Shown here: positions 41 through 56,330 of the stretch, one piece after another
How the letters are laid out: each line of letters starts with the position of its first letter
Numbering within the stretch: the first letter of the stretch is position 1
NCBI GenBank assembly: GCA_001804285.1
Contig: MHFR01000053.1
Coordinates: forward strand, 15,857-79,856
Direction: 5' to 3'
DNA: 64,000 nt
Origin: Candidatus Danuiimicrobium aquiferis
Lineage (GTDB): Bacteria > Omnitrophota > Omnitrophia > Omnitrophales > Danuiimicrobiaceae
Notes under the pieces: generated by a model
Told to the model about the DNA's origin: nothing
The model's database searches: none
Seen by the model: only the letters and a program-made list of their open reading frames with translations
Program-made: the position numbers and the translations under genes

Positions 41-57
41 GTGTTCCTCCTGATTTA

Positions 58-110: not shown

Positions 111-123
111 TTGAGAACCGGTC

Positions 124-1260
124 TCAAGTACCCGGTTCTGCTGCTTGCTGCTGGGTCACGCAGTGAATCGCACCGCCGCCGACGAGCAGCGCGCCCGACG
201 GGACACCCACTACGCGCCGCTTCGGGAAACATTCCCGCAAAATACCGAGCGCTCTCGAATCATTCGAGTCCCCGTAAACAGGAACCAGAACGACTTCGTT
301 TCCGATATAAAAATTGGCATACGACCCCGGGAGTCTTTTTTCACCAGCCATGATTTTTCGAGGCATCGGCAAGCGAATGAAATTGAGCATCCCCATATTT
401 CCGGCGCGGTTTTCTTCGAGAATCCTCCAATTCCGCCGGATCATGTCACAATTCACGTCTGTCCGGTCATCTTCGTCAATCATCACCAGGGTATTTTCAT
501 TCACAAACCTTGCTACATTGTCGATATGCCCGTCCGTATCGTCGCCGAACAACCCGCCGAGTAGCCAAATGAATTGCTCAATCCCCAAATGTTCTTTTAA
601 AATCCGCTCGAGTTCTTCGCGCTCCGTTCCGTAATTCCGGTTCATATTTAAAAGACATTGTTCCGTCGTGATGAGCAACCCTTTTCCGTTCACGTCAATC
701 GAGCCGCCTTCCAGAACAATTCTCGGCCGAAAACGCGGCATATAAAGATCGTCCGAAAGAATCTCGGGAATTTCATTATCGGCAAGCTGGCGATCATATT
801 TAAAACCCCACGCATTAAAAATCCAATCGCAATAAGCGGATTTGCCTTCGCCGTTCAGTAAAAAGGTCGGGCCATAATCCCGAATCCACGGACCAACGGT
901 TTCAATTTGGTGGAAGAAAATATTGCTGACAATATCATGCCTCTTCAATTTTTCCACCACTTCATCTTCTTCAGATTGATCATCCACCAAAAGGTGAACT
1001 TCTTCCGCCTGGTGAAGCTCCTGAATCATCTTGAGATAGATTTCTTCCACTTGAATGAGTAATTCATCCTGCCAGGTTTCGTGGTCATGCGGCCAGGCAA
1101 GCCACGTCGAAATGTGGGATTCCCACTCAGCCGGCATCCGGTAACCGAGCCTTTTAGGAGTTGACGTATTTTCGTATTCAGGTAATGACATAAAATTGAT
1201 GGTTTCTATTTTTTCAACATTCGTGCTTAAATGTCCAATGTCCAAATCCTCAATGACCAA
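124..1260 (-). CDS. aguA: agmatine deiminase (porphyromonas-type peptidylarginine/agmatine deiminase family)
   Basis: 378-aa ORF. It has the N-terminal motif MPAEWESH...WLAWPH typical of AguA, and a C-terminal GGGAIHCVTQQ carrying the catalytic Cys. TTG at 1260 has GGAG five nt upstream. An alternative ATG (MSLPEY) at 1191 gives a more typical N-terminal length. Confidence 0.8.
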   Translation of the reverse strand: MVIEDLDIGHLSTNVEKIETINFMSLPEYENTSTPKRLGYRMPAEWESHISTWLAWPHDHETWQDELLIQVEEIYLKMIQELHQAEEVHLLVDDQSEEDEVVEKLKRHDIVSNIFFHQIETVGPWIRDYGPTFLLNGEGKSAYCDWIFNAWGFKYDRQLADNEIPEILSDDLYMPRFRPRIVLEGGSIDVNGKGLLITTEQCLLNMNRNYGTEREELERILKEHLGIEQFIWLLGGLFGDDTDGHIDNVARFVNENTLVMIDEDDRTDVNCDMIRRNWRILEENRAGNMGMLNFIRLPMPRKIMAGEKRLPGSYANFYIGNEVVLVPVYGDSNDSRALGILRECFPKRRVVGVPSGALLVGGGAIHCVTQQQAAEPGT

Positions 1261-1422: not shown

Positions 1423-1476
1423 GAAAAAGGGAACAGGTCCAGACTCAAGTGACGCAGGACCTGTCCCCTTTTTTTT
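1423..1476. terminator. Hairpin-A family palindrome (gaaaaagggaacaggtcc ... ggacctgtcccctttttttt), terminator-like, immediately 3' of giant gene 1
   Basis: Inverted arms plus a T8 run. It sits 19 nt downstream of the TAA of the 13,117-aa ORF. Its loop is the approximate reverse complement of the loop in the copy at 58-110. Confidence 0.5.
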
Positions 1477-1494
1477 GCTTCAAACCGGTTTCAA

Positions 1495-2050
1495 TTATGC
1501 GGCAGAACCGGTCAGCTGCTCAGAGCGGATACCTTGAGCGAGAACGTGAATCACAAGATCCAATGCGCTCAGCGCGTCCCGGCTTTCCACCTGAATACGG
1601 TCGTCATGCCGCCTGAGCCATTCAACGGTCTTCTTGGAAAGCGCAACGAGTGCCGCCGTGAAAAGCTGTGCGGCGGTCCCCGTCTCTTTCTCGCCGCGAT
1701 AGCTGAACGGGACTCCGTTCGCATCCTGCCCCGCGTCAAACATGAGGCCCTTGATGCCGGTTACCGCAGTCGCAATGGTAATCGCAGGGTCATTTCCGAA
1801 AAATGTTTCCGAGTTGGGAAGCATTTTATTCGTGAAAATAACCTGCATCTGTTTTCCGGTCACCGAAATAATTCTTCGCACCGGATCATCCTGATTCACC
1901 GGAATGTTATCCATCACCGGCTTCAGCGATGACGGCATTGAAATACGCGGAATAATATGAAGGTTTGAATTTGCCGCCTGGCTCGCGAAGTCATGCAATT
2001 TCCGGACCACCGATTCGGCCCTTGCAGCGGCAACTTTTCCCCCTCGCCGC
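1495..2050 (-). other. conserved C-terminal domain shared by all three giant proteins (gene 1 copy, most divergent)
   Basis: ...FTAALVALSKKTVEWLRR...LAQGIRSEQLTGSAA aligns with ...LLLAGMGLLSKKDIDG...KDALAKAA in gene 2 and ...LLAAAVVLLSKQEIAGL...EEAMKRAA in gene 3. Confidence 0.5.
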
Positions 2051-5000
2051 GACTGCGAGGACAGGTCGCGCGCTTCGGATGACATCATGGCTAAATCTTC
2101 TTCGCTGATTTTGTAATCAACCATTGTCACTTCTTTGATTGACTGAATGGCTTCGGCAAGGTCCGTCGCACGGGCGAGATTTTCTTCGGTAAACGGATCC
2201 GTAGAATCATTCATCCTGTTGATTTCACTCACAACCGCTTGCCGCAATATGGACAACGCTTCTTCGTAAGTCATTCCGGAATTTCTTAAAACTGCCAACG
2301 CTTTTGTAAAACCCGAAATGTCTGTTGCGTCCGGCGTGCGGAGGAAAACCCGGTCGATAATCTCGCTAAATTGAGTTCCGGGTTCCGAGTTTAAAGTTTC
2401 GAGTTTACCGAAAAAGGGGACAGGCAATCGCTCAACTTGAATCATATGCCTGTCCCCTTTTTGTTTGGAACCCGAAACTCGAGACCCGAAACTGTTTTCA
2501 TTGCGCACTTCCGATCTTCCTAAGTCATTATCCGACAACGGCTTAGCGCTCCATCCCAATTTCTGAAGCGCCGCCTCCGATTTTTCATCCTGAACCTTCC
2601 GGTACATCTCAACCAAACGGTCGGCGTTCGCCGGATTAAATTCAAGGAGCATCGCATTCCCTGCAGGACTCACATGAACATCCACCAATTCCCGGAGCCC
2701 GTCGAGCGGTTCATCGAATGTCGGAAGTGACATCACGTCCAGAATCCATTCAAGGCCTTTGACCAGGCTGAGAGGAGAAGGAAAAAGATTCCGGAAATTC
2801 TCGGAAGCTTGTTGAAATTGATCGAGAGGAATGTCATACAGCACAAAATGCGGCTGAAGTGAAAATTCAGGGAAGGCCCCAACCAAAGATTGATTCATGC
2901 TTTCAAGGCTTTGAAGCAATGCCTCCGGTGTCCGCAATTTCTTTCCTAATCCCCGGTAACGTTTCCCCACCAAAAATCCGTCGGGAGGAATCCGGCTGAC
3001 GAGTTTCGGCGCCCGGGCTTCGCGCAAAAGATCTTCCTTCACCAACTCAGCAAGTTTTTGAAGCACCCGGTTTCCGTTCTGATATCCAATGCCATCCTTT
3101 TTGCCGTCCCCGCTCTGAAGCCTATGATATGCGCGGCCGGCCGATTTCTTTTCTAAAATCGCGTGCTCCGCAAAATAATCCCGGACGGACAGCAACATGA
3201 GGTTGTTCATCCTTCCATGGGCTAAATGATGTTTAAACGTATCCATATCCAGCGTCTTCGTTAGGGGATCCGGGTGAGCGCGAAGCATCCCTTCTTCGGC
3301 CTGTTTCGCTAACTTTTTCTGTTCAAGCGCTTCTCTTAACTCAACCACTTTCTGACTGAAAGCCTCGGAGGATAACCGTTTGCCTTCGGGAACGATATTT
3401 CCGATCCATCCTATGGAAGAAAGGACATAATTTTGATTCCGGCCGTTTTGTTTTGCTTTTGAAAGCGCATCGTTCGCGAAGCGCAATCCCCATATATAGA
3501 ATTCATCCAGCCGGTCTTCGCGAAGCTTACCGGCCTCGTCGACCCAATAATTCGAACCGGAAAAGGGGACAGGCATATTACTCAAAAGAGAGCGATTGCC
3601 TGTCTCCTTTTCCATATCCGTCGTCTGCGTGACCAAATAATCAAGCACTTGCTTGGCGGAAACAGCGCCGAGAGAAATGGTGAGGATATTTTCAAACTCA
3701 ACTGCGAGCAACCGCCCGGACGGAAGTTTTAATTCGTTCATGAGTCGCGCAAGTTCGACGCGTTGAAAAAACGTGCTGTCAGGGGAAGATGTCATTCCCA
3801 CGGAAGTGGGAATCCAGCTGGATCCCCGCGTACGCGGGGATGACACTTCTGAGATTGCTTCGACAATATTCTGACCGCCATCTCGCAATGACACGCCGGG
3901 GCCTTGTTTCCTGACCAGCAAATTAAACCCATTTCCATGCCGGACCGCCGCGACGATATATTTCAATCCCATGGTTCGGATCATTTTCTGGAATTCCTGG
4001 ATGTCTTTTTCTTTGTAGCCTTTTAAATCAAGCCGGTAAATCGCATACCGGTTTTCAAATGCCTTTGTGTATAACCCGACCGGTTGAGAAACAAATTCAG
4101 ATCTTCCCATTTTGGGACCGGCAAACTCCAGCACCGCTTCGTCTCCGCCGACATAGCGATGGATCTGCCCTTGCATGACTTGATTCAGGATTTCCCGCGC
4201 TTCACGGTATAACGAGACATTCGCGATGATGACATCCGGCGACGGCTCGTTTCCAAGCGTTCCGAAAAAGCGTTTCCCGAGCGCATCATTCCGGGCACTT
4301 AATAGATCGGAATCGATCATTGAAAAATAAAATTGGTCAAGCGTACCGGCTTTTGCGTGCATTTTGAGTTTCTTAAGATGCTCGACTTCACCCTCCGCCT
4401 GTGATGTAAGCGGATCCGAGGATTCAGTGCGGACTTCAGCTCTGAATTGAGTTCCTAGTTCCGAGTTTAAAGTTTCGAGTTGATCTGTTTGTCCTAACCC
4501 GAAACTCGGAACTCGAAACTCTGAACTATTTTGCAGACGCACCTCTCCCCGTTTCCTTATTGGTTCTGTCACCCCACCATTGCGCATTCCCGGTGGAATA
4601 AACGCATCAACAACGCCGGCTTCCATGCCAATGTTCTGATAAAACCCGTGGTCCGGCTGAAGTGGAACGCGAAGCGTAACGACATTTTTCGGCGTCGCCG
4701 GCGCGAGATATCCTTCGTCCATTTCCCTGAAAAATAAATATTGCCAACCTGCCCCATTTTTCTGAACAAGCTTAAGAAAATTGGTTTCATTGGGATCAAC
4801 TGCTTGCAGTTCGCCTTGGGGATCCACCATGCCAAGCATTCTTAATGCCTCCCCGGCCAAAGCAAATTCAGGATAACGAAAGGATACCGGCGTCAGCATC
4901 CGATGCAAATCCCTCAGCGCTTCCACGGACCCCGCATACGCTTTCACGAAATTCATCACGCTCGGTTCGGCTGCTTCGCGCTTTTTTCCTCTTCCGTCCG

Positions 5001-8000
5001 GCCCTACATCATACTTTTCATCAATCGCTTTTTGAATGGCGCCAACTTCATTAAAGACGACGAGTACTTTTATATTCGCATGCACAAATTCTTCTATCCT
5101 CACCACTGGTTTCGCCAGCAAGCCCTCAATCAGTTTAATGCTTTCGCGCAAACTGGTAGTAAACCCCGAACTTACGCCGACTTTTAATTTACCGGCCCTT
5201 TCCCCCAAAGAAACAAGATTTCCACGGAGCTTGAGCAACTCTCTCTCGGGAGTCACAACCTGCTGCTTGAAATACGCAAAAAGCGCTTTCTCGGAAATCG
5301 CCGGATCGGCGGGCTCAAAGAGTTCGGAATCAACAGGAGCTTCTGCCGCCTTTTCCGTTTCAGAGAGGGAACCAAATCGCCGTTCGTAATTTCGCATCAC
5401 AAGTTCTTCCGCGATTTTCCAGTTGTCACGAAGCTTGAATAAAATGGTCCGCGCACGCGCGCGTTTTGCCCCGTCTTTCTTGAAAAATATGCCGATGAAA
5501 CGCCCCACCTGCGCGAATTCGCTTTCCGAAAGCCCAATGGTTTTGATCTGAAAAAATTCACGCGCTTGATTATACGCTTCACGAATAAAGCGATATTCGT
5601 CCAAACCAAGTACGTTAAACGCCGCATTAAACGAAGCCATCACCAACACTTGCCTCTTATCAGGACGAACCTGTAAACTCTCTTTCCCAATTTCCGCGGA
5701 CCGATAAAACCGGCTATACGATTCATTCAGGTTCTTCCTCAGAGCCGCTTTCCCGCTTTCAGATTTATCCAGGGCTTGATACATCGCAGGAATTTCCTGC
5801 TCTAAGTCTTTCAGAAAACGGTCAAATTGTTCTTCGGAAAAAGACAAGTCCAACGATCTCTGCTGGTTCGGCTGTTTGTATTTGCTGAGCAATTTGAAAA
5901 ATCTATCCTCCATGATAAAGACGCCTTTCGCCAATTCCACTCCGAAAGCCGGGGGAAACAATCCGGAAGGCTGCATGAGCTTCTCTGCGGGCGACCGCGA
6001 AAGAACAACACCGACCCCTCGCTGAATTTCTCCCAACTCGGGAATCTGCATCACTTGAATCAATTCCGGCGCAACAGGATTTTCCGACAAATATTGTTTT
6101 TCGGGCATCAATAAATAGGAATAGCCGGTATGTGCCATCAGCTCCGGACCCGAGAGGGGCTGGGGATACGTTTCAAGATTAACACGCAATCCGGTCTCTC
6201 GAATAGACCGGAAAAAACCGCGCTCCGGAGTGGCAATCAAATTGTCCTGCTTATCTCCGGAAACAATCCCGATCATCAGATGCGGCCCTTTCTCCGGGAC
6301 ATCGACTTTCAATAATACCGGTGCTGTATCAAACACCAACTCTTTCGAGAGTTCGCTGAGCGCGTTGTAAGCACCCACATATCTTTTATTGACCACAAGC
6401 ATTTGCATTCTCGGCATAAAACTTTCCGGTTTATACCGTTTGTTCATCGATTTGCGTGCGCTGGCGCCAAGTTTTCTCAGATTATTTTCCAAACGATTAA
6501 ATTCCGATAAAGCCACATCCCCGGAGCTTTGCGATCGTATACGATCAATCATCTCCGTGCTTTCTTTGTAAGACGCTCTGAGGCCATAACGGTCGTCTAA
6601 TCTTCCGGATTCCGGATAAATTCGCATTTCTTCACAGGCGTTTTTCAATTCTTCTACGGCTTTCGAAACCACTTCCAATTTGTCCTTGCTCACCGTGACG
6701 GACTGCGCAAAAAAGGCATCGATTGCCGTTCTTGCCTCGTCAGCATTTGCCGTGTCAAAAGTACTGCCTGCCGGAATTTTGGTCCGCACGGTGAAAACTC
6801 CGGCCGGAAATGAAAACGTTGGTTTTTCCCGTTTCGCGTCCGCAGCAGACGCCGCTTTAGCCTGTTCGAATGCTTTACGATTTAATACAAAAATATTTTT
6901 CGGCGAAATATCCGGAAGCGGAAGTTCATGCCCCATCACCAAAATTTGCCAACCCGGCGTCGCCTGAAACATTCCATCAAATCCGCTAAACCGGACCTGT
7001 TTCGATGAATCTTCAATATCGGTATAAACAAATGTTTCAAAATTCGCCCGGTAAATTTTCCCGGACGAATCAACAAGACCCATGATAAAGACCGGTTTAT
7101 CGGCTCCCAGGGTGGGGATTTCAAATCCGGGAGCACGGTACTTGATAAAAACGCTGGCGATGTGGTCTTGATACTGCCGGGTCAACGCATTATCTCCCGC
7201 CTGAAACAAATCGATGGCGCGATGATCCATAAACTGTTTGCTTTCAAATAACCACGCTGCTTCGCGGCGTGCTCCGGTCACATATTGATTCATCTGATCA
7301 AGCACTTGAATGATCTTGAAAAACGACGCATGCCCCTTTTGGTCGATCAGCTTCTGTAATGCGGCCGATGCGACCGCGAATTTTTGATCGAGAGAATCTG
7401 TAGCATTCGGATTATTTTTCCGGTGCCAGGCATTCATTTGCCCCATCGCGGTTTTTATAATTTCCAATGCGTTTTTGGGAACAGAAAAAGGCAATCCATA
7501 ATATGAATCAAATACCCTTTTCGCGACAACAGGAGCTGCGGGCGTTAAATAGTCAGAAGATTTTTCCGCTGCTTTATCTTTGTCCAATTCTAATCGCAAA
7601 TTGACACTTTGTTCAGACGCTTCAAGCCCGACGACAAAACCGATGGCTTGCATCATTTGGGCCGGTTCACTGAGCGAAATTTGCGTCACTTGAGAATCCG
7701 ACATGAAATAATCATTCCAAATGAGTGATAGCGAAGACATTCCGAGCGGCGTAGCTTCCCGATCGAACACTTGATGATCGTAAATAGAGGGACTCGCCCA
7801 TAAAATCGTGTGCATTTTCCCGTCATCAATAATTAAAAAGAGCGGCTCGGACTTTCCCTTCCCCTGCTTCGATCGCCAATAGACTAATTTTGCGACGGCA
7901 TTTTCCGGAACCTCGAGGGCGAGCGGACCGGTCAATTGTTTCGCATTCAACTCAACCACTTTATAAAAAACTTTTTGCTGTCCACGCGTTTTTGAAGAGA

Positions 8001-11000
8001 CCGTGTACGTTCTCACCTTTTCGACCTGATCAATTTGGAGCCTTTTGGCCGGTTTCTTCTCTGCCTCTTTCGCTTGAAAGGCTTCAAGAATATCGGCTCC
8101 CCACAAAGGATACCGGGAATCCGCCTCTCTTGATTGCGTGAGCCATATGGCAGAAAAAGCTTGTTGAAGCACCCCTCCGGCATCGTGTCCCGGTTCAAGG
8201 AAAGATTTCGCAACGGAGTCCACCACGTAAGCATACATCCCGGAAAAATTCAATATAGGCGCCGGCGCACCGGTCAAAAGTTCGAGTTTCATTTGGCGCA
8301 AGACTTCGTCGGAAGGCCTCGATAATCCGGCCAAAGCTTCATGCAATTTAGGTAAAATTTCTTCTTTCGTCACAAAAATTTTCTTCGGGGCTTTGGCCAT
8401 CATCTCTTTCACAGAGACATACCTCCCTGCAAGAACGTCTTTATTCAAAGCACCGGCTCCTTCCATATTACGGGCTAAATTAATTTGTTGCGCTATCTCC
8501 TCCGCCGTTTTGTTCTCTAATTGATCGAATAGCTGTCCTTGCTCCGGCGTCAGGCTTTCACGGGGAATCATTAAATTCAATAATGCGGCTGCGTCTTTGG
8601 CCCGGTCCGACAAAAGTACCAGAGGGCCTTTCGAAACACTCGCACCGATGGTTTCAAAAAAGACATTAATGGAATCCCAGAAATCAAATTCAAATGCCGG
8701 CGAAGTGGCAAAATATTCACGGATAATACTTTGATCCGTTTGAAATTTTTCGATCACAATCGATACAAATGCCAGGAGCGCAATGGCATCCGCTTCCCAC
8801 CGTTCGAGCAGCGTCCGTTGATCGGGAGAAATCTGTCCTTCGCGAATTAACTTTTGCAGATTCCGCACCGTTTTTTCCATGGTTAGGAATATTTCAATGT
8901 TTCCTTCAAAGCCTCCGGCCTCATCGTTTCTGTTGAGCACTTCAAAGATCGATATTTCCTGTAAATTGGTCTCGGCGCGCAAAGACGGATCGGCAACAAT
9001 CCGGTCCATGTGAGCCGCATGCATGGCCATCGGCGAACCGGTTTCCTTTAATTCGTCGACGGACTCTGAAATGGCCGTTTCGATCGCACCGATCGCCTGC
9101 GTGGCTTGCGTTTTTAATGTTTCAAAATCATTCGTCTCGCGGCCCGCAACTAATTTTCCGATCATGGCTTTGGATTTTGTATCAAAATTCAGGATATCAT
9201 CTTCTAATGTAGCTATCCGCGCCGGATCTAACGTTAACAAAGGATGAACCCGGGACTGTATGACGCGAAGTTTCGCATCCAAACTTGTTTTCGCTGCGGC
9301 AACACGATCTTGCAATTCGCGAGTCAGTTTGCGATTGAACTTCTGGGAAACCACTTGGGCGCGCTGGCTTTCAAATTCCCGCGCTTTGTCTTCCGACACA
9401 ATCCACTGCTCCGAAATATTTTTGCTCTTGTCGCCGATCGCTTCATTTAATTTCGCGACAAATTGAACCTTGGCGTCCCGGCTTAATAATCCCATAACAC
9501 CCACCGGCAGGTTCTCCATACGGACTCTTCCGCCTTCAATATCAGCTGCCAATTCTTTAATCCACGCAAGATGATCAATCCCTTTGCTGCGTTCTTTTGC
9601 GGCTTGCGCAGCAGTCCGGAAGCGTTCGGGAAACTTCGTAAACGTATTCGCATTTGCCGCCACCAACGTGATTTCAGAAACTTGTCCAAAATACGGAATC
9701 TCGACCGGCTGCTTGAACCGGAGCATGATCCGCTTCAGCCAGTATTGTTCGTTTTCAAGCACGACTTCAATATTTCCGAAATCCGTTTGCCTGCGAAGCG
9801 CCGCGGGGACAGTTTGATTGGTATTCAATCCGGGAATTATTTCCAAGCCCAGATTAAAGGCCTGATTAATTTCATTCCACCACACAAGCTGCTCGGCCGA
9901 CCGGACGGGAATCCGAAGGACCGACCGGGGATTTCCTTGCGAACCGGCTGCGGATCTCAACTGTTCGGGAAGCGTGACCAAAAGTTTGTCAAAAGCTTCG
10001 TCCTTGGACGTGATCGAATCAAGCTCCATTACCCGGATGTTGTCAAAAGAAAACCATTCAAGAAAAATTTTGATGAACCGGTCCGCATCGTGATGGAAAA
10101 AACCCGCCTCTTTGATGAATGATAAAACACCAAAAAGTGTACGACCGATTTCCCCTTCGCTGTGCGAATCAATCCATGAGTCCGTAAACATTTTCCGCAC
10201 CATTTCAATCAATAAATCACGTCCGGCATAGTCACGGGAGATATGTTGATCGAGGAAACGGTTCAGGTCTTCCGTGAAAAGTTTTGCGTTAAATTCCATT
10301 TGCTGGAAAGCGGCGTCCATCCCGCTCTGAGCGGAGCCGGGCAATGCGAGCGCGATGGTCCGTAAACTTCTTGCGATATAAGGAACCAAATCAGGTTGCG
10401 CCTTGGCCAGCGCCATGAGCTCATCGAAAGAGGCCCGGACTTCGCTGCGCTGTTCTTCCCGAATTTTTTCGGCAAGTTGATCGACCTTTTCTAAACCATT
10501 ACGATTCTTCGGCGAAGCCAATAAATTAATCGCGGCCTGGTCCAGCTCATCACCGGCCGAAATTAATATGTGTTTTAATTTTTTCGTAAGCCGGTCCACC
10601 TTTTCTCCGCTTAAAAACCATAAAACGTCGACAGCCGTTCGAATGCCCGAAGCAGGCTCCCCGGACGCGGCGAACCGGCTTAATCTTTCCTGGATTGTTT
10701 TTTCAATTGAATCCCGAAATCCGGAAAAACCTTTTTCACTGTAGATCGATCTCAGAAAAATAAGTTCGGCTGCTATCGGCGAACCATCTTCATTCTGCTC
10801 AATCGCTTTTCGAACGTCCCGAATCACTACGATGCCAACCCCGGCGCTGAGCGGTTCGAGCACTTCGTCAACATACCGGTGGACCGTTTCTTCTTCGGTA
10901 AAAAGATGCGCAAAAACCCTCACTTCTTCAAAAAGTTTCCGGACCTGCTCGAATGAAATGTCCGGCTTAGCCGCAAGATCATGAACATACCGGTACATCT

Positions 11001-14000
11001 CTTTCAGCGTCAGGGAATCGACCCCGCTATAAAGCTTGAACCAGTCAACCTTATACCGGTCTTCCGGATGCTCCAGATAATGCTTGAAAAATTCCATTCT
11101 TAGTTTTGACAAATCATCCCCAAACCACGACCGGTCTCCTCTAAACACGGCGTTAGAGGTCGGCCCCTTTTCCGAAAAGCTGAAGAACGAAATCAAAAGC
11201 AGTTGAGCACTCATTGATAATTCTGCGTCATCAGACCAGATGCTTTGATAGACCAAATCCGCGAAATGCGCCCCTTCTTCAAATACAAAAGCGGGGATAT
11301 TGTCTTTTGTCGCTTCCCGGGAGAACATTTTTTGTTGCAGCAACGAAACCGTTTGTCCGAGCTCTACCGTGTAGAACGACAGCAATCCCTCGCCCACCGT
11401 ACGAATGACGTTGTTCAGCGTTGCATCCGATTGTGCAAAAAAATCATCGGCGCGAATGATCGCGTCTGCTTCTTTCAACCGCGCCGGTAAAGAAGAGCTC
11501 CGGGTATCCGGCACGAGCGCCGCGACAAAATGTTCGTATTGCGGATGGCGAGTCCCGACCGTCTCGGCAAATCTAATTTTCGGATCGCCGGCTGTCCGCC
11601 GGATCGCTAACATACACAAAAACTTCAGATAAACCTGCACATTCTCTTTGACGTACATCTCATCAAAATATTTTCTGATTTTTTGGAACGCTTTATCTCC
11701 GAAGTTTTTGTTGATGGCGGCAACAAACGGGACTGAAATTTTATAATTGATGTTTCCGGCATGCCGGTCCACCAGATGCACATGAAACAACACTAAATAT
11801 TCGAGTAACGGATTCGGCGCGCGGGAAATATATTCGATGATCGCGTCCGCGGCATCACGCGGCCCCAGGTCCGACCTGATAAACGCACGGGCTCTTTCCA
11901 CCGAAGCGTCAATATCTCCAAAGAATTCGGAACGGTCCGCTGTGGCCCCGCGATAAATCGTCGCCATGATACTGCGTTCGGCGAGCAAATGTTCCGGGAC
12001 CGGTTTTCCTTGTTGGTCCGCAATTAAAAATTCATTCACTTCCGCGTTTAAATCTAAAATTCCGTTTCCGCTTTTCCCCAGATCTCCGAATTCATTAATG
12101 ATATATTGAACGACGGCCGGCTTTTCGCGCGGGCCCTCGGCTGCTTCCGGTATCCCGGAAGAAGTCATGCTTTCGGCAGGAATGTGGAGCCGTAATCCCC
12201 TGGGATCCTGAATCACCGCTCCGCCTTTTCGTCTTGTTTCCGCTTCAAGTTCATCACGCGGGTCCTGCATGAATGAACCCGGCCCCATTTCAAAGACTTT
12301 CACATCCCGCGGGAAACCCCACCGATCCGCCAAAGCAGGATCGATTTTTCCGATCACGCGTCCGCCTTGACCCATATTGGGACCGTCAGCCGGTGTCTCC
12401 GATACCGGTTCTGGCCCTAAAGGACCGCTTTGCGGGAGAACCGGAGTTGTTTCCCCGCTCGACGCAGCAACAGTTCTTGTATACTGATCATAATTTGCAA
12501 CAGCCAACTCGTTAATAGCGCGAGCAACTGCCTCGATTTCCTCGACAAAAACTTCAAGTTGAACGTGCAACGCCGGATCAACATTCGGATTATCGGCCCG
12601 CGCAGAACCAACGCTTAGCTGCAAGGATTCCCACTCGGAAAGCGAAAGAAATCTCCCCTTTCTGATCTTTGCATATAACGATTCCTGGCCTAATGCTTTA
12701 AAAAGAGGGCCGACAGAACGCCGTCTTACCACTTCAAAGAAAGCAAGGCCACGAGAAAACTTTTGCAAACTTTGTTCAAGAAATTGCGGCTGTCCTCTCA
12801 CCATCGTCTCGGCAAACAGAATTCGTTCTCTCCCGCTATTGAGCGCCTGATTTAACTTATTCCTTCCGCTTTCGGTATTTTGACCGATATTTTTGAAATA
12901 TTGTGCATGGGTAACCGGCGACAAATCATTGAGCGCAACTAAAAACTGGTGATATTCTCTTTGCGAAAGATTCCGGTTTTCATATAGTCGTGTTTTCTTA
13001 AAAATCCCGAGATTCGTCAGCGCGGTATTCACCGCATCGTTCATGATAAAGAAACCGCGGCTCAACTCAACTCCTAAAGCAGGATCTAAATGGCCGGAGG
13101 GTTGAAATGGTGATAAATCAATTTTCGGAAGAATATGACTTACTGCAGCCGGTAAGGTTGTTTCGGGTGTCATTGCGAGGCGAGAATCTGCTGGTTGCCG
13201 CGGCAATCCCTGCTCTAAGATTGCTTCGTTCGCCTCCGGCGAACTCGCAATGACGGGCGTGGCCGGTGCTTCAGGCTCAGCTTCTTCGGCTTCTATAATA
13301 GTCTCTGCTCCCGATGCGGCAACTGAAGGAGCTATCGGTTCAGCTATGGATTCTGGGAGGACTGGCACATCAACGCCGGACCTTGGCGCTTGGGCAACCC
13401 GTCTTCGCATGGCCAAAGTTCTTGTTTCTTCTTCAGGATAAATTTCGCGGGGCAATATTTCTTTCAATAGAAGCAACGACTCCTCGATCAACCCGCGAAT
13501 TTCGTCAAATATTTTTTCATGCTCGGGCAAATTCGCCCTAATCCATTCGCCGTCAGGAATCGCACCACGAAGCCCGACCAACCTTTTCACCAACCGGACA
13601 TATTGCTCGTTGATGTATCTGGCTTTCGTCTGTTTTGTGTGTTCCGCAACACGGTTTTTTGTACTCCGGACAAAATCCCGCACCGTTTCCGGCTGGGTTC
13701 GAAGAAACCCGTGCAATTCCTGCGTGGTCAATTTGGATTTGACGGTCTTTCTGGTTACGATTGATTCGGCGTGAATTTTTTCCCCGAGCTTTTTTCTCCA
13801 CTCGTCTAATGCGGGAACCGTCAATTCATTGATCCGCAGCCTTTCAAATTGGCCTACCAATTCTTTTCTGCTCCAGGATGAAACCACAGCGTCCTCCGGT
13901 AACACTTCCGCTAAAAATTGATTGATCTCGACGAACCGGTAATCTTTCCCTTTCACGTATCCCGGCAAACTGAAATCTTCCAGCTCCTCGCCATTCAAAA

Positions 14001-17000
14001 CAATCAGCGTGACCGGTTGTGCGGGATCGAAAAGGTCGGGATGTAATTCTTTGAGCAATGTATATTTAATAATGGCTTGCCCGATATCCGCAATGTCCGA
14101 ACCCAGCTTTGCGTCATAAATTCCCCGGTTCCATATATAGTCGGGAGCGCGATATTCCGACAAAAGCGGGTCGGACGCCACAAATCCGTCATAATCAAAG
14201 CGGCCCTGGCTCACGTGATGAAAAACAAGCGCAACCAATCGTTCGAACACATCTCCCTTCAGCTGCGCGTAATCCTTGGGTTTCCGCTCCGCCGTGCTTG
14301 CGGTTCGCTTCGCCGGCGTGTCTTTCTCCGTTGTGGTCGACGCAATCGCCATACTCCACTCTTCGGGTTGTTCCGAAAGCTTACCCATTTTGCGAATGAC
14401 GATCGCTCCGACAGAATCCGCATTCTTTTTCACTTCCGAAACAGATAGGTTCTGGGCCACGGCCGGCGAATCTTCGCCGAGCAGCGCGGAACCATTTCGC
14501 GGGACATAGATCTGTAAACCAAAACTATTCGTATCGGCATCGTAAAACGGAACAAGGTAATATTCGAGATGCCTGTATTTTGCTAAACCCGAAAACCGGA
14601 CAGGAGAAATAGATTCTTCCTCACCTCTTTGAATTTTCAACACATAAGCCACATCCTCCAACCCTCGCTGATTGACGGTCACGGCCATTTCCGGCTGCGC
14701 AGAACGGATTCCCGCTAACCATTCTTTATACTCTTGGGGCAAATAGCCTTGAGACATGTCTAATGCATAAGTTTTCTTGACCGGTTTCGGCCGTGCGGCT
14801 GGCTTCGCGCTCTTTTCAATAATACCCTTCCCCCATTCGGCCATCAGCCGCGGAAGTCCCATCCCGAGGTGTTCGGCTATAAATTGAAGCGTCTCCATCG
14901 CCCCTGTAAACATACTACGTAATTCATCGGTGCTCGGTTCGTTTGCTAAGGGTTCGGGTTCAAGCCGGACTTCTTCCAAAACCGCTTCTTCGGGCGCCGA
15001 GACAACCAGCCCCAGCCCTTGCTCCAAAAATTCGCGCGTTGCCGCTTCCGTTTGAACCGGATAAGTGCCGAGGAATTTTCCGCCGGAAATTAAATTTGTT
15101 TTGTCGGGAGTTCTTCGAATAGCTTGTGCAATGGATTGCAATTTTTCATGATCTTTCAGCGTTGTCTCATTCTTTTTTTCGCTGACCGACAGGATATAAA
15201 TATGTTTGCTGCCGGGCGAAACATAATACACAACGCGAAGGAATCCCTTCGTTCCGCTCCCCAATGGAAAATCTCGAAGTGGATTTAAGTCCGCAAACTT
15301 CGGCGTCTCGCTGCTTCGTCCTTCGAGCAATGTCACCAATTTGGCCCGAATGTCAGGCCCGTAGGCTTGTGCCCGCGCCGTTAATTCGCGAAACGCCTGG
15401 TCCGTCAGAACAAGGCTCCGGTCCGTTTCAATCCTCACCCGGAGCGGGGAAATTTCAAGAAGCTTGATGTGTCCCTTCCGCAATTGACCGTTTGCGCGTA
15501 AATGTTCCAATCCCGGAGGTAAGTCGTCAAAATGGCGCGTACGGATTTCGAACCGGTCATTTCTGAAATCGTTTTCCAAAGGCCCGGCTGCCCGTTCGAA
15601 AGCCGCCGTTAAACTGTGCTCCGTCAATTCAGGACTTACCTGGATCACCCGGACATTCCGGTTGTGCCTTAAAAGTAAACGCATGGCCGATGAAATATTT
15701 TCCGGCAAATTTTGCCAGGCACCGGTTCCGACGCTATATTTTGTACTCGTCAAATAAACGGTTTGACTACCCTGATTTTTTTCCCGGATAAAATGAACCA
15801 GCGGTACCGTGGCAGTACGGGCTTCGGACCTGAATTGAGTTCCGAGTTCCGAGTTTAAAGTTCCGAGTTTACCGAAAAAGGGGACAGGCATATGACTCAA
15901 GTTGAGCGATTGCCTGTCCCCTTTTTGTTTGCTGTCATTCCCGCGGAAGCGGGAATCCAGCTGGATCCCCGTTTGCACGGGGATGACACCCTTGTTAGCT
16001 TTAAAGTTGCGAACTTCCGCCCGACCGGCACCCCCCAAACGTTGGGCACGATCAAACACACCCACGTTATGTTTTGCCCATCGCCTGATTTCAGGATCCG
16101 TCGAATTTAAAAACGTTTCCGAGTCCCAAATATTAATCAAAATGTCCTGCGCACGCGAAATCCCGACATTCCGGCGTTTCTTCCCGTCCACCGGGTCCGC
16201 CAGAAATCCGACCGATCCGCCCTTGTTTGAACGGACCCACGATAAAATGACTGCTTTGTATTCCGATCCGATCGACGAATCAACGGTGATCACTTTAAAA
16301 GCGCCGCTTGACACATCCGCCGAAGGAACAAATGAATTCCCAAGGTCAAGATCACGGAGAAATTGCGTAGCCATTTCCTTGGTCGGCTGTGCGATAAAGC
16401 GCCGGACATCCGCATCAAATAATTTCATTTCTTCCTGAATTATTTTTTCCCGCTCGGGATAAGCTTTTTGACGAAAAGTCGGATCTTCACGGCTGAACTC
16501 CTGGAAAAGATTTTCATGCATCCGGAAACGGACAAATTCTGATTGGAATATCAAATTCAACGCAGCGGCAGATTCTGCGGAAATCGCCGGCGGTCCTTGC
16601 GCAGAAATAACAGATGAAAACGCTTCATGAATTTTCGAAAAATGAAGCAACGCATCCGAAATCATGTCAACCTGCCTCTGATAAGGCGAAATGACGGCAA
16701 TGTCCTTCGCCGCGACACCCTGTCGATTGATAAGCCGGTTCACCCAGCTCACAGCTAAGTTAATTTCGCCGCGGTTAAAGCGGCCCATTTCATCCACTTG
16801 CCCGGTCTTCTCTTCCCGGTAAATTCCTCTTGTATCTTCTTCAATGACGGTACCGTCGACATCACGCCCGGCAATTAATTTCCCATGATAAAAATAATTA
16901 ATGAGATCCACGATCAAACGGCCGGACCGGCGTTGAATATCGAAAAAATAAAAGGGCGGCTGCGTCACGCGAAAAACTTCCGCATCCCGGGTGAAAAATA

Positions 17001-20000
17001 TATTAATCATGTTCTCAAGCAGAGAAATTTTAAATCGCCCCAATTTTGCGGGATCGAAGATTTTCGAAAGCTGCCGTGTCCCAAACGGGGTTTGAATGTC
17101 CCGTATCTTCCAGATCAGAAACTCGTTCATGGCAAATTTAATGTCGTCGTCCCCCAATCCATAGGCCGGCAATTGTTCGTGATCTCCGACAATCAGTACT
17201 TTTTGCCGACCGCTGGACGACCCCTTAAATTTATAAACGGGGAGGAGCGTTTCAGGAACCGTTCCGCGGCTCGCCTCATCAATAATAATCACATCGGCAT
17301 TCCATAACTGGGGCCTCTTTTGAAGGTCCGAGTCAAGCGGCATTCCGTTTGTCGTTCCCAAAGTCAATGTCCCTTTTCCGGCCGCGCGCAAACGAACTAA
17401 TGAATCCAATTTCTCTTCTTTCACATTCCACAAAAGCTCCAACACTTTCTGGTCAATCGGCTCTTCGTTATTTCCAACGCGGGCAATCGGTCCTTGCCCG
17501 TCTTTAAGAAGTTCCCGGTCCATCAATTTGAGTGCCACATTGTCAACGCCGGGATTGGTTTGTGACAAAATCAGCACTTTCCGTCCCAATTTTAAAAATA
17601 ATTCCGCAAGCCAAACAATCGCTGTTGTTTTTCCGGTTCCGGGGGGCCCTTGATATAACGCGATCGGAACGGAACTCATCAGACCTTCGATAACACCCGC
17701 CTGTTGAGCTTTATCAAGCTGCTGTTTTTCGGCTTGTTCCTTGGCTTCAACCGTCGTTTCAATTAATGCGTGTTCATCGCTCACCCGCCCGTTTTGTGCA
17801 GGATCCGAAATAAACAAAGAAAGTCCCAGCAACAAATCAAACCGGGGATCTCCCGTCGTTGCTTTGGAAACTTTTTCGGAAATACCACTCGCTCCCAATT
17901 TTTTTAAATCAATAGCGATATGTCCGTGTGCTGTCCGCCCGAGATTTGAAACTACATCATCCAGCATATCTTTTTGATTCACCCACGATGAATTCTTGAT
18001 CCGGATGAGAGCTCCTCCCTGCTTCAATGCATCTTCAAGCTCGGATTTGATATAATCGTAACCTGCGGACACCTTCGGCAGTTCAAATTCCAGAGAATCG
18101 GTCCCGGTCTGCTTCACGCGGAAAAAGGGCTGTAACGCCTCGGTTTTCCCTTTCGGCTTAATCCGGAATGTATCGCCCCGCCAAACAAATCCTTTCAATT
18201 GTTCTGCCGGAATACCATGCGCAATAAACCCATTATGCGTAAACTCGATGGTTTGGAATGTAAATTCAATCGCGGCAGACGGTGGGAGCCCTTTGGCTCG
18301 TCTCTCCCGTTCATCGCGTTTGTTTTCCGCTTCGACCATGGCCCCAATCATAAAATCATCGTCAATCAATTGCGGCATCCAGTAATTCGCCATGGCGTGT
18401 GAAATCACAATCCTTGCGAGTTCCAAATAATTCTCGGACGCCGGATAATCCGCATTCAACTCAAACACGAGCCGGCTCCATTGAAAGGCTTTTGTATAAA
18501 GCCCGTCATTCAAGGACCTCAACGCTTCCTCTAAAATGCTTTGATACGCTTGGTCCCGATGCTCGGGAAATGTAGCAAGTTTCTGAACATTTTCAAAGAA
18601 AGAGGCAATCGGTCCGTCTTTTTTAATTTGTTCTTGATATTGACGGACCAGGCTTCTCGATTTTTCGATTTGTTCAAATAAATTTTCGACATCCGTCCGG
18701 TTCCGCGCAAATGGCCAAGATGTCTCCGCGACGGCAACAGCCGCCTGAAGCTTACGTTCCGCTTCTAAATACCGGCTTTCGTCCATCAATCCCGAAACCT
18801 CGTCAAGGCGGCTCGCAAATGCTTCAAACGCTCTCACCAATCCTTTAATGACGACGTCTCCCGCCGGTCCGGCCTGAAGTTCTGTTAAAATCCCGATTCC
18901 CTCCGGTCCTTTTCCCTGCTGAACCAAGGTTCGCGCTTGTTGAATTTTTTCGATATTCGAACGGATTCGCGCGGCTTCGGGATTCTCCGGATTTACACCC
19001 ATCAACTCATCAATCGTTTTAAGCGCTTCTTCAAAATTCAAATGTTTATATTGATCGCGCATTTGTTGAAGAAGACCCTTCGCCTTCGCAACCCGTTCGG
19101 AAAGTTGAGCGATCGCTGTTTGAACCTCTGGCTCCGTCGCCCGAGGATTGATCTGACCCAATAACCGGCCGGCGTCATCATAACGGCCCTGATCGTAAAA
19201 ATCGCGCGCGATTCGAACCAGATCCGGGCCGCTCAGATCATGCATCCATTTTTTCAAAATCGCTTCCACCTTTTGCCGGATCGCCGAAGCCATCTCCGGC
19301 CGCCTTGATACACCGTCCAAAAATAAATAATCTCCGGAATTGGGCGTAACAGCAGCTTCGTATTCGGCCAATATTTTACTTTCCCGCGAAACGGATTGTT
19401 GCCCCGGCTGTTCGGTCAGTGTTTCGATATGCGATCGAATCATGGTTCTCAAAAACTGCGGATTGATTATTTTGATGTACCACAGAATTTGCTCGATTTC
19501 CCACTCTGCGAGCGGCTCATCCGGCGCAGACAACAATAAACTCGCCCATAAATTGAGAATACGCTGAATCTGCTCCGCGGGAAGCATTAAAACAAAACTG
19601 GCAACCGATGACCTCATCGTCTCCGGATGGTCGGATGAATCAAAATACCGCTTTAATTTTTTCCTTATTTCACTCACGGGAAGCAAGGTTTCGCGAATTG
19701 TCCGGAGCGCGTCTTCTTTCCGCTGATTTAAATCATACGCAACGGCAAGCATGGGCGAAATATATATACTGCGATAATAGTCCGCCGGATATTCCTGCTG
19801 CGTGGCGACCAGAACCGATTCGAGCGCCTTGTCATTTTCCCCCTGCACCAGATGGGAAAAACCTTTCGCCATTTGAAACGGGACTTGAGCGCCCCGGCTT
19901 TTTGATTCCTTAGTCAACCGTTCATATTGGGGGAATAATCGCTCCAGTGCCGCCTTCATTTTTTCAGCTTCGGACAACCATCCATTTGAGCGCGCAATAT

Positions 20001-41303: not shown

Positions 41304-41850
41304 TTACGCGGCTTTGGCGAGAGCATCCTTCGCGGCTTCTTCGAGAACCAAGCGGAGAGTCATGGCAAAGAATTGATTGAATGCATTGGCATTCACCCCG
41401 CGGAAAATATTTTGTTCAACTTGTTGAATCCCGTCGATATCCTTTTTACTCAATAAACCCATTCCCGCGAGTAACAAACCAACCGGCGTTACACGATCAA
41501 GACCTTGATATGCGATTTTCCCTCCGCTCACATACGCATCTGCAGCCAATTTAGCCGCGTGTGCATTCGCCGTCTGAACCTGGTCTGTAATCACCACATT
41601 GGCATCTCGAGACGCATTCATCGGAAATAGTGAAATCTGATAAGTCTTGATATCTCCTTTTGTCCGGGCGCGGTTAAATTCCCGTTCAATCGGTACCCGG
41701 TAATCACGCTGAATACCGGGCGAAATAAATTCAAAACGAATATTAGAATTTAGAATGGCAATATTAGCAACTGTCTTTGCTAATTCACTAAAATCTTCCC
41801 GAAACTTGTCTGTCGTCTTATCATCGGATGTTATATAACCGGCGGGAATA
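41304..41850 (-). other. conserved C-terminal domain (gene 2 copy)
   Basis: NSNIRFEFISPGIQ...ANVVITDQVQTANAHAAKLAAD...VGLLLAGMGLLSKKDIDGIQ...LVLEEAAKDALAKAA. Confidence 0.5.
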
Positions 41851-55764: not shown

Positions 55765-56330
55765 TTATGCCGCACGCTTCATGGCTTCTTCGGCAGCCTG
55801 GGCGAGGACCCAGTTGAGAGTTTCGGCGAGGATATTGAATGTTTGAGCATTCTCAGCGTGGAAAGCTTGATCATCAAGTTTCCTCAGCCCGGCAATTTCT
55901 TGTTTCGACAGCAACACAACCGCCGCCGCAAGCAATCCGCCTAAATGAACTCCGCTTGTGCCAAACCGTAATCTCGTCTTCCCGTCGGCAAGCGTCGTTG
56001 CCAATGTAATTGCTTTTTCCGGCCGCGCCGCAACCGTATTTCCCGTGATCACAGCATCATAGTTTGCCGAAGGAACTGACGGAAATGTGAATTGTCCATT
56101 TCGGATCACGCCTTGTTTTTGAAGTTTGCCAATTTCCCGGCGGATCGTTGAATCAATTTTTAAACCTTGAGTCCCCGCTGATACAAATTCAAACTGGATA
56201 TTTGGATTCAATACGGCAAAATTACGGGCAAATTCAGCCAACCGCCGGATGTTCTCCGATAACTCTGCTCCTTCTAATCCCTTTAATTCATCTAACATGT
56301 TGATTTGAATCTTAACCGGATGATCGATGC
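55765..56330 (-). other. conserved C-terminal domain (gene 3 copy)
   Basis: NPNIQFEFVSAGTQ...AVITGNTVAARPEKAITLATTLADG...HLGGLLAAAVVLLSKQEIAGL...VLAQAAEEAMKRAA. Confidence 0.5.

Follow-up and report, generated by a model that had tools for sequence, protein, structure and literature searches.

Five copies of a 54-nt double hairpin, here called family C, are carried in-frame within giant minus-strand open reading frames (ORFs) of Candidatus Danuiimicrobium aquiferis (Omnitrophota), in the 64,000-nucleotide stretch of DNA analyzed as a whole (the window). These copies are distributed over two ORFs, of 13,117 aa and 2,743 aa, which read it in more than one phase and in both orientations. Family C is probably a doublet of the NTS/SRM class of hairpin repeats, which is maintained for its nucleic-acid structure and tolerated in giant ORFs.

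The element consists of the left half GTCATTCCC-N8-GGGAATCCAG joined to the right half CTGGATCCCC-N8-GGGGATGAC. One half is an ATTCCC hairpin and the other an ATCCCC hairpin, arranged head-to-head with the junction CCAGCTGG, and the whole forms a near-palindrome with TGTCAT...ATGACA ends. A search of the window with a 54-nt degenerate pattern returned matches at 3791-3844 (c1), 15934-15987 (c2), 22675-22728 (c3) and 57508-57561 (c5), for a chance expectation of 0.00 estimated from 100 shuffles. Copies c1, c2 and c3 are on the plus strand, c1 with the ATTCCC arm first on this strand, c2 in the same DNA orientation and c3 with the sequence of c2. Copy c5 has the opposite orientation (minus strand), the ATCCCC arm coming first on the plus strand. 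The fifth copy, c4 (24314-24412, plus strand), equals c1 apart from a nested 45-nt insertion (24355-24399) located midway along the loop of hairpin 2. No second copy of this insert was found in the window or the fetched loci. With regard to the features of a MITE (terminal inverted repeats, target-site duplications and a parent IS), no direct repeats flank family C at any of the five sites, and no IS from which it might derive was encountered in the sequence examined. Two 108-nt relatives (36 codons) are also present. The first (39155..39262, plus strand) has the same termini, GTCATTCCC...GGGGATGAC, and is read by the larger ORF as SSPNVSLGKERAGPSFSGVVGDLQTIDSRLKHAGM. The second (38426..38533, minus strand) is ~80% identical to the first in the opposite orientation, the ORF reading the opposite DNA strand to give SFPQAVGGNLKNVDTRHPGKDRASPRFTEGKHSEM.

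The larger ORF, g1 (1495..40848, minus strand), is uninterrupted over its 13,117 aa and carries c1-c4, and the second, g3 (55765..63996, minus strand), carries c5; its 2,743 aa are counted from an ATG at 63996 and the frame remains open where the window ends. Such giant multi-enzyme ORFs fill about 98% of the 64-kb window. Methyltransferase, shikimate-DH-N, TPR and Upf1-like helicase (AAA_11/AAA_12) domains are scattered along g1, and g3 contains a NAGPA domain at aa 1070-1202. A recurrent motif, R-[SA]-E-x-R (RSExR), delimits the enzyme-sized modules of these giant proteins. The 13,117-aa g1 is called identically in an independent ENA assembly, and its last 10 kb, the region of c1, are matched at 100% identity by four further assemblies of the population; N-gaps, which fall in g1, one of them within repeated sequence, are the sole difference in the NCBI contig. 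An exact look-up of the g3 protein found no record, a single-sequence AlphaFold2 model of g1 aa 12181-12480 around c1 was uninformative (mean pLDDT 36) and a promoter/terminator consensus scan of positions 1-20000 gave nothing above shuffles. By class, the host genes fit those of the "Archaeovorins", giant multi-enzyme proteins of Omnitrophota (bioRxiv 10.1101/2023.11.21.568195): they come from an Omnitrophota genome, with proteins of >10,000 aa, scattered methyltransferase, AAA/helicase and TPR domains and an N-terminal membrane segment, and may belong to the named group. That paper describes neither in-frame hairpin repeats nor an RSExR boundary motif like those of g1 and g3, its text containing neither "palindrom" nor "MITE" (bioRxiv 10.1101/2023.11.21.568195), and full-text searches on the peptides, RSEAR-type motifs and the species name returned no earlier description of these features.

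Evidence that family C is maintained as a structure comes from its predicted ssDNA fold, in which each half forms an 8-bp stem with a 4-nt loop (z from -4.7 to -6.1). Among eight distinct copies from several organisms, 99.2% of the stem cells are paired, and compensatory changes occur at three stem pairs, at positions which had been left free by the search pattern, with the encoded amino acids changing at these positions. The arms agree in sequence with the NTS/dRS3/SRM repeats, short semi-palindromes of the form ATTCCC-N8-GGGAAT which are ssDNA targets of GIY-YIG Ssn nucleases in other bacteria (PMC11893778). All five copies contain this dRS3 core without a mismatch (chance expectation 0.41). 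In addition, the published Ssn-related motif, the SRM pattern HGTCWYN(0-2)YYVSBRHN(0-5)WNVSBRGN(0-2)RNCYNB (PMC11893778), is matched directly by one arm of c1, c2, c3 and c5, and by c4 only via its identity to c1. It is likewise matched by the left hairpin of the first 108-nt relative (39154-39186), at L010:17701 in the same genome and by most copies of loci L001-L009. When the arms are compared with the NTS consensus CGTCATTCCCGCGMAVGCGGGAATCYRG, for which a tolerance of ≤1 mismatch has been used (PMC11893778), the ATTCCC arm of c5 (57535-57562, minus strand) is the nearest with one mismatch, c2 and c3 having two and c1 and c4 more than two. Furthermore, half of the family consensus, used as a query, is identical over 27/27 positions to N. 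gonorrhoeae and Azospirillum DNA.

Family C thus resembles the NTS/dRS3 of Neisseria in its core, in its oriented 5' GTCAT and 3' CCAG extensions and in its predicted 8-bp hairpin with a 4-nt loop. Unlike these repeats, it always occurs as a fixed head-to-head heterodimer of an ATTCCC and an ATCCCC hairpin, its host belongs to the Omnitrophota and its copies in the window are intragenic, inside ORFs. Because no ssn (GIY-YIG) or transposase gene was found in the ~84 kb of sequence examined, the tie of family C to Ssn is one of motif identity only. A crude regex screen, rather than an HMM, detected no GIY-YIG motif in the ORFs of the window, L010 and L001-L009, and an Rfam gathering-threshold scan of the window returned no family. 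Classed by motif, family C is a REPIN-like doublet of the NTS/dRS3/SRM class; the explanation of which this assignment forms part is, as a whole, one that we regard as likely.

Outside the window, the exact 54-nt doublet is rare: a scan retrieved one Allosphingosinicella MAG (1 of 185,579 species genomes) and eight metagenome loci, and no viral contig, numbers too small for a census of reading frames. Intergenic-looking double-hairpin copies were found at seven other loci, one of them in the same genome, in which a 59-nt variant is intergenic (L010:17702-17760). Copies located outside giant ORFs sit between ORFs, the exception being one ambiguous high-GC locus, and other bacteria carry the 54-nt form itself away from long ORFs.

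How the copies of the window are related to each other bears on how they spread. Copies c2 and c3 share a flanking composite of ~200 bp which is 97-99% identical. As they are identical and their flanks are shared over this length, they were counted as one event, c3 being probably a duplicate of c2 rather than an independent insertion. The independent family-C events in the window number about four, with two reading modes, which is a small sample. Similarly, c5 and the two copies of metagenome locus L003 have the shared context RSEAR-N...SS-(element)-TN(F/L)-RAEVR within otherwise unrelated proteins, and their DNA likeness continues past the 54 nt (TTCTTCT and ACYAATTT). From these shared flanks, entire spacers may have been duplicated or recombined, so that part of the spread of family C would not be due to transposition. 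Taken as a full account, in which entire spacer cassettes (RSExR, repeats, RSExR) are duplicated or exchanged by recombination or gene conversion while the element rides along, this scenario is possible although doubtful. The composite of c2 and c3, the context common to c5 and L003 and the 543-nt tandem duplication in which both L003 copies lie are all consistent with it. However, c1 and c4 are 100% identical after removal of the nested 45 nt and yet have unrelated flanks, c1 is 194 aa away from any RSExR motif, and the phase of c1 and c4 differs from that of c2 and c3, which is not expected of in-frame cassette copying. Double hairpins also exist without a cassette, between ordinary genes elsewhere and as the 59-nt variant of the same genome.

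Each of the other four copies has an RSExR motif no more than 7 aa away, a proximity that a random position would have with P = 0.07. Copy c2 lies in a 59-aa spacer containing repeat elements only, between RAEVR (16009-16023) and RSEAR (15817-15831). Copy c3 is bounded by RSEMR (22750-22764) and RSEAR (22582-22596), c4 by RSEVR (24466-24480) and RSEAR (24289-24303), and c5 by RSEAR (57580-57594) and RAEVR (57484-57498). Two other interpretations of the RSExR motif, as a hairpin repeat at the DNA level and as a target-site duplication, were rejected: its codons are variable (CGN/AGR, TCN/AGC), and it is also present in homologous proteins devoid of elements. In an exhaustive HMMER search, g1 aa 7650-8700 retrieved further giant proteins with helicase modules of ~40% identity. 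In these homologs from other organisms, the helicase module ends with a single RSExR and no element-derived peptide, in contrast to g1 with its 59-aa element-only spacer between two RSExR motifs, although the comparison is only empty-site-like. Word-seeded searches for true empty sites with g1 aa 5300-8500 (c2-c4), g1 aa 12150-12700 (c1) and g3 aa 1900-2743 (c5) returned nothing or self only. As no true empty site was found, we infer, rather than observe, that family-C copies arose by insertion, which would have proceeded through some enzyme.

The location of these copies could also mean that the hairpins are functional as nucleic acid at module boundaries, for mRNA processing, stabilization or pausing, or as ssDNA recombination sites. 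Besides the strong enrichment of the copies next to RSExR, the stems kept by compensatory change and the clustering of other hairpin families, some of them terminator-like, in the same spacers would agree with such a role. We nevertheless consider it unlikely: since homologous giant proteins have RSExR boundaries without elements, the elements are dispensable for the architecture, about 35 of the 44 RSExR sites in the window have no family-C copy, and the enrichment is equally well explained if spacers are the only permissive places.

With regard to translation, the preliminary description had reported that one element is read in different frames and orientations at three sites, and this was borne out. 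Translation in the ORF frame gives exactly the peptides reported, VSSPRTRGSSWIPTSVGMTSS for c1 (phase 2), GVIPVQTGIQLDSRFRGNDS for c2 (phase 0) and SVIPAKAGIQLDPHFRGDD for c5. Within the minus-strand gene g1, the peptide of c1 is SSPRTRGSSWIPTSVGMT, while c2 and c3 yield VIPVQTGIQLDSRFRGND, one phase away from c1. Copy c4 has the phase of c1 and encodes LSSPRPP...RGSSWIPTSVGMT, c1 and c4 sharing the reading mode SSPR.RGSSWIP..GMT. In g3, the opposite orientation of the element in c5 gives VIPAKAGIQLDPHFRGDD.

The same description had taken the lack of stops in several phases of both strands as the hallmark of a repeat adapted to, or filtered for, ORFs. Literally, the premise holds: in six-frame analysis, four of the six frames are open in each copy, so that stops do not occupy most frames, the outcome which would have refuted the idea, the two closed frames each being interrupted by the single TGA of the conserved terminal GATGAC. 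This number is, however, not above chance. Shuffling each copy, as the preliminary description had suggested, gives a mean of 3.1-3.9 open frames with mononucleotide shuffles and of 4.1-4.9 when dinucleotides are preserved, the probability of at least four open frames being 0.36-0.95. Likewise, random 54-mers of the window have a mean of 3.38 open frames, with at least four in 46% of them, and four open frames is the modal outcome (49%) of dyad-preserving shuffles. Openness of both strands adds no independent evidence in an element so close to its own reverse complement, the two orientations of which specify nearly the same pair of peptides.

It is consequently very unlikely that the element has been shaped or selected to be stop-free in many frames for life within ORFs, the proposal made for Rickettsia palindromic elements. 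Both open phases and both orientations are in use, and all lengths are multiples of three (54 and 108 nt for the units, 45 nt for the nested insert, 54+45 for c4), as this idea would have it. The first 108-nt relative has four open frames for 1.2 expected (P = 0.01 with mononucleotide shuffles), but P rises to 0.25 with dinucleotides preserved; the GGGGACAGG hairpin family has an average of 4.1 open frames for 2.5-3.5 expected. Against the idea, in addition to the null result for family C and the redundancy of its strands, the stop-bearing GATGAC termini are kept in every intragenic copy. Moreover, since the 54-nt form exists outside long ORFs elsewhere, its length and open frames were not acquired in ORFs, and the limited data available suggest that copies within genes do not differ from those between genes in their stops, loop sequences or classes of length. 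Family C is tolerated in ORFs, with no sign of adaptation to coding, and of the proposed adaptation or filtering only a trivial filtering stands. Finally, it is hardly credible that these 18 residues form a true protein motif or linker under amino-acid selection with the DNA repeat as a by-product: the peptide VIP...GIQLD...FRG.D does recur in g1, g3 and L003, but the same DNA gives an unrelated peptide in the other phase in c1 and c4, which effectively refutes this reading, substitutions are compensatory for pairing at the expense of the amino acids, in other bacteria this DNA also occurs away from long ORFs, with one half identical in Neisseria, and no Pfam family matches at the family-C peptides.

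In the favored explanation, that of an NTS/SRM-class doublet tolerated in giant ORFs, conservation acts on the nucleic-acid structure rather than on the coding sequence, and the copies would have landed, or been copied, inside the giant ORFs. As the phase of insertion would be arbitrary, reading in different phases and orientations would follow. Three ordinary properties would explain the persistence of these copies: 1) the 54-nt unit corresponds to 18 codons and never shifts the frame, 2) the sole stop of each strand being the terminal TGA, four of the six orientation-by-phase combinations stay open and 3) in the short RSExR-adjacent spacers which house four of the five copies, the extra peptide is likely harmless.

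Among known systems, REPINs and BIMEs are RAYT-associated units of about 50-110 nt made of two inverted imperfect palindromes, with many dispersed, normally intergenic copies which are presumably mobilized as ssDNA hairpins; their constituent REPs have a conserved 5' GTAG. Family C has the same doublet architecture, two short palindromes in inverted orientation, but its termini are GTCAT/ATGAC instead of GTAG and its copies are translated. No RAYT gene was found in the sequence examined. In its behavior, family C is closer to a different type of repeat. As summarized in PMC10969869 from work of 2000, Rickettsia palindromic elements (RPE) are palindromic repeats located in-frame in protein-coding genes, to which they add a peptide while leaving the ORF intact, and according to the same summary several families coexist in one genome (PMC10969869). 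All five family-C copies are similarly palindromes inside uninterrupted ORFs with the frame preserved. Unlike RPE, the 54-nt family C uses two phases as well as both orientations, giving unrelated peptides instead of one conserved peptide, and its hosts are giant multi-module proteins, with inter-module spacers as sites, rather than ordinary metabolic enzymes. By this analogy, which is one of behavior, family C works like an RPE but is not filed as one; it gives RPE-like in-frame palindromes a new host and a new context without being a new kind of element.

The finding is a modest one, namely that a ubiquitous intergenic hairpin repeat can occupy a gene in any permissive phase without special adaptation, and family C provides a clean negative control for the notion that many open frames indicate adaptation to ORFs. 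It also extends the NTS/SRM hairpin class to the Omnitrophota and to a fixed doublet form. A more far-reaching reading, which we hold to be rather unlikely, is that RSExR-bounded spacers are excised or dispensable segments of polyproteins and havens for selfish DNA, the hairpins being possibly used for processing, pausing or module shuffling. If so, the arbitrary-phase reading of family C would be a symptom of built-in disposable coding sequence, in which hairpins of several families, NTS/SRM doublets as well as terminator-like ones, accumulate. Translated selfish repeats are strewn through the record-length genes of the Omnitrophota, which has consequences for how these genes are annotated, assembled and analyzed for domains. 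The cleavage points of giant proteins have been described as unknown (bioRxiv 10.1101/2023.11.21.568195), and the RSExR-flanked inter-module spacers, as tolerant positions, offer a handle on where, or whether, these proteins are cut.

The family-C unit is a 54-nt double hairpin, GTCATTCCC-N8-GGGAATCCAG joined to CTGGATCCCC-N8-GGGGATGAC, of which five copies were located: c1 (3791-3844), c2 (15934-15987), c3 (22675-22728) and c4 (24314-24412, split by a 45-nt nested insertion) in the giant minus-strand ORF g1, and c5 (57508-57561), in opposite orientation with its arms swapped, in g3. For c1, c2, c3 and c5, no pattern match is expected by chance. In the ORF frame, c1 and c4 are translated as SSPR.RGSSWIPTSVGMT, c2 and c3, which share their DNA orientation with the phase shifted by one, as VIPVQTGIQLDSRFRGND, and c5 as VIPAKAGIQLDPHFRGDD. 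These peptides reproduce exactly those of the preliminary description, whose reading of the element in a different phase (c1/c4 versus c2/c3) and in the opposite orientation (c5) was thus confirmed. As c2 is identical to c3 and both are embedded in a common composite of other repeats (~200 bp), about four independent events are left. Once the nested 45 nt are taken out, c4 equals c1; their flanks are unrelated. The nested insert (24355-24399) is unique (ATCCGCCACTAAAGCGTTGGCGGATCCGACCGCATTGTTTGGCGG), contains a 9-bp hairpin of its own and sits exactly mid-loop of hairpin 2; its length is divisible by three, and neither the window nor the fetched loci gave a further copy.

It had been proposed that an element lacking stops in several phases of both strands is adapted to, or filtered for, ORFs. 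Every family-C copy indeed has four of its six frames open, the third phase on each strand being closed solely by the TGA within the terminal GATGAC, and stops in most frames were therefore not found; neither was an excess over chance. Mononucleotide shuffles of the copies leave on average 3.1-3.9 frames open and dinucleotide-preserving shuffles 4.1-4.9 (P = 0.36 to 0.95 for at least four), 54-mers drawn at random from the window have 3.38 on average, and when dyad symmetry is kept, four open frames are the commonest outcome (49%). The count is thus not above chance and gives no sign of adaptation to ORFs. Furthermore, with an arm complementarity of 83-86%, the element is near its own reverse complement, so that either orientation yields almost the same pair of peptides and "both strands" brings no independent evidence. 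A random insertion would be tolerated in four of six orientation-by-phase combinations as long as the net gain is divisible by three, which holds for the 54-nt unit and the 45-nt nested insert.

Taken as single-stranded DNA, each half is predicted to form a 4-nt loop on a stem of 8 bp (z from -4.7 to -6.1). When eight distinct copies, some from the window and some from other organisms, are compared, pairing holds for 99.2% of stem cells; three stem pairs, at positions the search pattern left free, show changes on both sides, and with these compensatory changes the encoded residues differ. At the core lies ATTCCC-N8-GGGAAT, the Neisseria dRS3 repeat. Each of c1, c2, c3 and c5 has one or more arms that directly match the published degenerate Ssn-related motif (SRM), and a c5 arm has one mismatch to the 28-nt Neisseria Transformation Sequence (NTS), both as defined in PMC11893778. 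Judged by sequence, each half, with its GTCAT and CCAG extensions, belongs to the SRM hairpin class. Such hairpins are cut on single-stranded DNA by the GIY-YIG nuclease SsnA and are widespread, occurring in Neisseria and many Pseudomonadati (PMC11893778). One half of the family consensus is identical (27/27) to N. gonorrhoeae and Azospirillum DNA. All copies found anywhere are heterodimers of one ATTCCC and one ATCCCC hairpin, an architecture which is REPIN-like; Rfam holds no matching family. Family-C termini (GTCATTCCC...GGGGATGAC) also bound two 108-nt elements of g1, at 39155-39262 (+) and 38426-38533 (-), with ~80% identity between them. Separated by 620 nt and oppositely oriented, these two are read into protein from different DNA strands; the copy at 39155-39262 has four of six frames open (P = 0.01 with mononucleotide, 0.25 with dinucleotide shuffles).

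The exact doublet is rare: of 185,579 species genomes only one, an Allosphingosinicella MAG, has it, as do eight metagenome loci, and no viral contig does. At loci L002 and L004-L009 the copy is outside long ORFs, mostly between flanking ORFs, while at L001 (66% GC) the ORF context is ambiguous. A 59-nt variant in the host genome (L010:17702-17760) lies between ordinary genes and has just three open frames. In-frame carriage as in the window was seen only at L003, a 2.8-kb metagenome contig with a single long open frame and motifs of the form R-[SA]-E-x-R (hereafter RSExR). This contig (Ga0156133_121), from another giant ORF, carries at 440-613 and 983-1156 the cassette of c5 (window 57448-57621), RSEAR-N..SS-[element]-TN(F/L)-RAEVR. 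The DNA likeness reaches a few bases past the element, the L003 copies lie in a 543-nt tandem duplication, and the protein around them is unrelated to g3.

The window is 98.5% coding. Its minus-strand ORFs g1 (1495..40848), g2 (41304..55607) and g3 (55765..63996) span 13,117, 4,767 and 2,743 aa, the last still open at the window edge, and an agmatine deiminase gene lies at 124..1260. Its protein is recorded for Omnitrophica bacterium RIFCSPLOWO2_12_FULL_44_17 / Candidatus Danuiimicrobium aquiferis (phylum Omnitrophota). Since the 13,117-aa g1 is also called in an independent ENA assembly and the overlap with four assemblies is 100% identical, the giant ORFs are real genome features. Comparison of the window with L010 shows that, in the NCBI assembly of this genome (MHFP01000071.1), N-runs replace window 2049-2055 and 9985-10040, one of them in repeated sequence (families D6/D8); the giant gene, uncalled there, is resolved by the other assemblies. 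Pfam detects scattered domains only (methyltransferases, shikimate-DH-N, TPR, Upf1-like helicase, NAGPA), consistent with the giant multi-enzyme proteins described in Omnitrophota (bioRxiv 10.1101/2023.11.21.568195). Over their N-terminal ~800 aa, g1 and g2 are paralogues (aa 9-884 versus 5-770, 39% identity). Here g1 exceeds g2 by ~110 aa and holds three peptides of the GGGGACAGG hairpin (aa ~85-100, 265-280, 316-330), with no pattern match in g2; the pair would provide an empty-site comparison for that family.

Other repeats populate the same ORFs. Terminator-like AAAAGGGGACAGG...CCTGTCCCCTTTT hairpins lie just past the g1 and deiminase stop codons (1423-1474, 58-109) and also within ORFs (2410-2463, 3559-3613, 15874-15927, 22618-22671, 39859-39910, 40009-40063, 40555-40609, 56827-56881, 60988-61030, 62213-62263). 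In the giant ORFs they are in-frame in two phases (KGDR...PVPFF and KGTG...PVPF), with an average of 4.1 open frames versus 2.5-3.5 expected. The GGGGACAGGCA hairpin loop at 15890-15911 is exactly reverse-complemented relative to 22634-22655 and 2426-2447 (CATATGACTCAAGTTGAGCGATTG versus CAATCGCTCAACTTGAGTCATATG) within otherwise collinear, near-identical composites, which suggests that recombination across the perfect arms of the stem has flipped it. The palindromic GAGTTCCGAGTT...AACTCGGAACTC family, translated ...SEFRVPSFGLGQTDQLETLNSELGTQF (4444-4530, 15823-15870, 22583-22615, 27199-27316, 32044-32152, 48823-48915), lies directly upstream of RSExR motifs, and its DNA likeness extends into the RSExR codons (families D1, D5, D11), suggesting that the family either prefers the motif as a target or was duplicated together with it. 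The ORFs hold additional palindromes and simple repeats in-frame, at 38723-38767, 56414-56487, 59685-59744, 39302-39339 and 54748-54806, including CCCTCACCCCTCCCCTCTCCC/GGGAGAGGGATAGGGTGAGGG (translated PHPIPLPEGEGRGEG), a 36-nt near-perfect palindrome and a 24-nt perfect inverted repeat; CCAGTGACTGGTGAC-type repeats are common to g1 and g2.

Across the three proteins, R-[SA]-E-[AVTLMI]-R is found at 44 sites, where shuffling predicts 0.46. Its codons vary (CGN and AGR, TCN and AGC), which indicates conservation at the protein level. Lengths between motifs are bimodal, with spacers of 9-95 aa and modules of 135-2,186 aa. The smaller enzyme domains each stand alone in an enzyme-sized segment (methyltransferases, 238 and 249 aa; NAGPA, 262 aa; shikimate-DH, 334 aa), and the TPR and helicase domains share the 2,186-aa one. 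Four of the five family-C copies are within 7 aa of a motif (P = 0.07 for random position), motifs being present at, for example, 15817-15831, 16009-16023, 22582-22596, 22750-22764, 24289-24303, 24466-24480, 57484-57498 and 57580-57594, c1 being the exception at 194 aa; the elements thus sit mainly in inter-module spacers, where extra peptide would probably matter least. In homologous giant proteins of other organisms the motif recurs, eight (P0003), nine (P0007, RSEAR) and eight times (P0010, RSELR); these proteins contain no family-C peptide (VIP...GIQ or SWIP) and, for the other repeat families, at most isolated short-pattern matches. Their helicase module ends in a single RSExR followed by the next module; that of g1 ends in RAEVR, a 59-aa stretch built entirely from repeats (family C, a GGGGACAGG hairpin, a GAGTTCCGAGTT element) and RSEAR.

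Family C is thus probably an NTS/SRM-class, REP/REPIN-like doublet, selfish or host-used at the DNA level, whose copies would land in, or be copied into, giant ORFs and would be retained there by trivial filtering. Insertion is the step that we infer: homology searches around c1, c2-c4 and c5 and four other assemblies yielded no true empty site, and no nuclease or transposase gene was seen in the ~84 kb of sequence examined. Palindromic repeats that sit in-frame have been described in Rickettsia (RPEs) and, more rarely, as ERIC and other MITEs (PMC10969869). Partly compatible with the doublet reading is the tentative alternative that entire spacer cassettes spread through duplication or recombination, as c2/c3 and the flanks common to c5 and L003 suggest; as the sole route, however, this conflicts with the unrelated flanks of c1 and c4 and the different phases. 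A nucleic-acid function at module boundaries appears unlikely and is not needed, because homologues do without the elements. Adaptation of the element to coding, somewhat less likely again, is not supported, and a protein-level function of the peptide is highly improbable, since both the reading in two phases and the compensatory changes in the stems contradict it.

No prior description was found of a fixed doublet, an Omnitrophota host and arbitrary-phase translation in giant genes in combination, nor, in the literature searched, of the RSExR motif, which is a candidate for a boundary or for a site of polyprotein processing. Inside the giant ORFs, shortly after RSExR, there are signal sequences of twin-arginine or lipoprotein-like type (e.g., NAFPTRRRFFKIAAVFAGLGVSGC, RRTFMKYAGYAGGLFGLVISGC), in g1 at aa ~2257-2285 (after RAEAR 2252) and ~4320-4345 (after RSEAR 4287) and in g2 at ~2560-2585 (after RSEAR 2510) and ~3290-3315 (after RSEAR 3268); they look like N-termini of separate exported proteins. 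Modules delimited by RSExR, with repeat-filled spacers between them, are a more interesting lead than the frame question.
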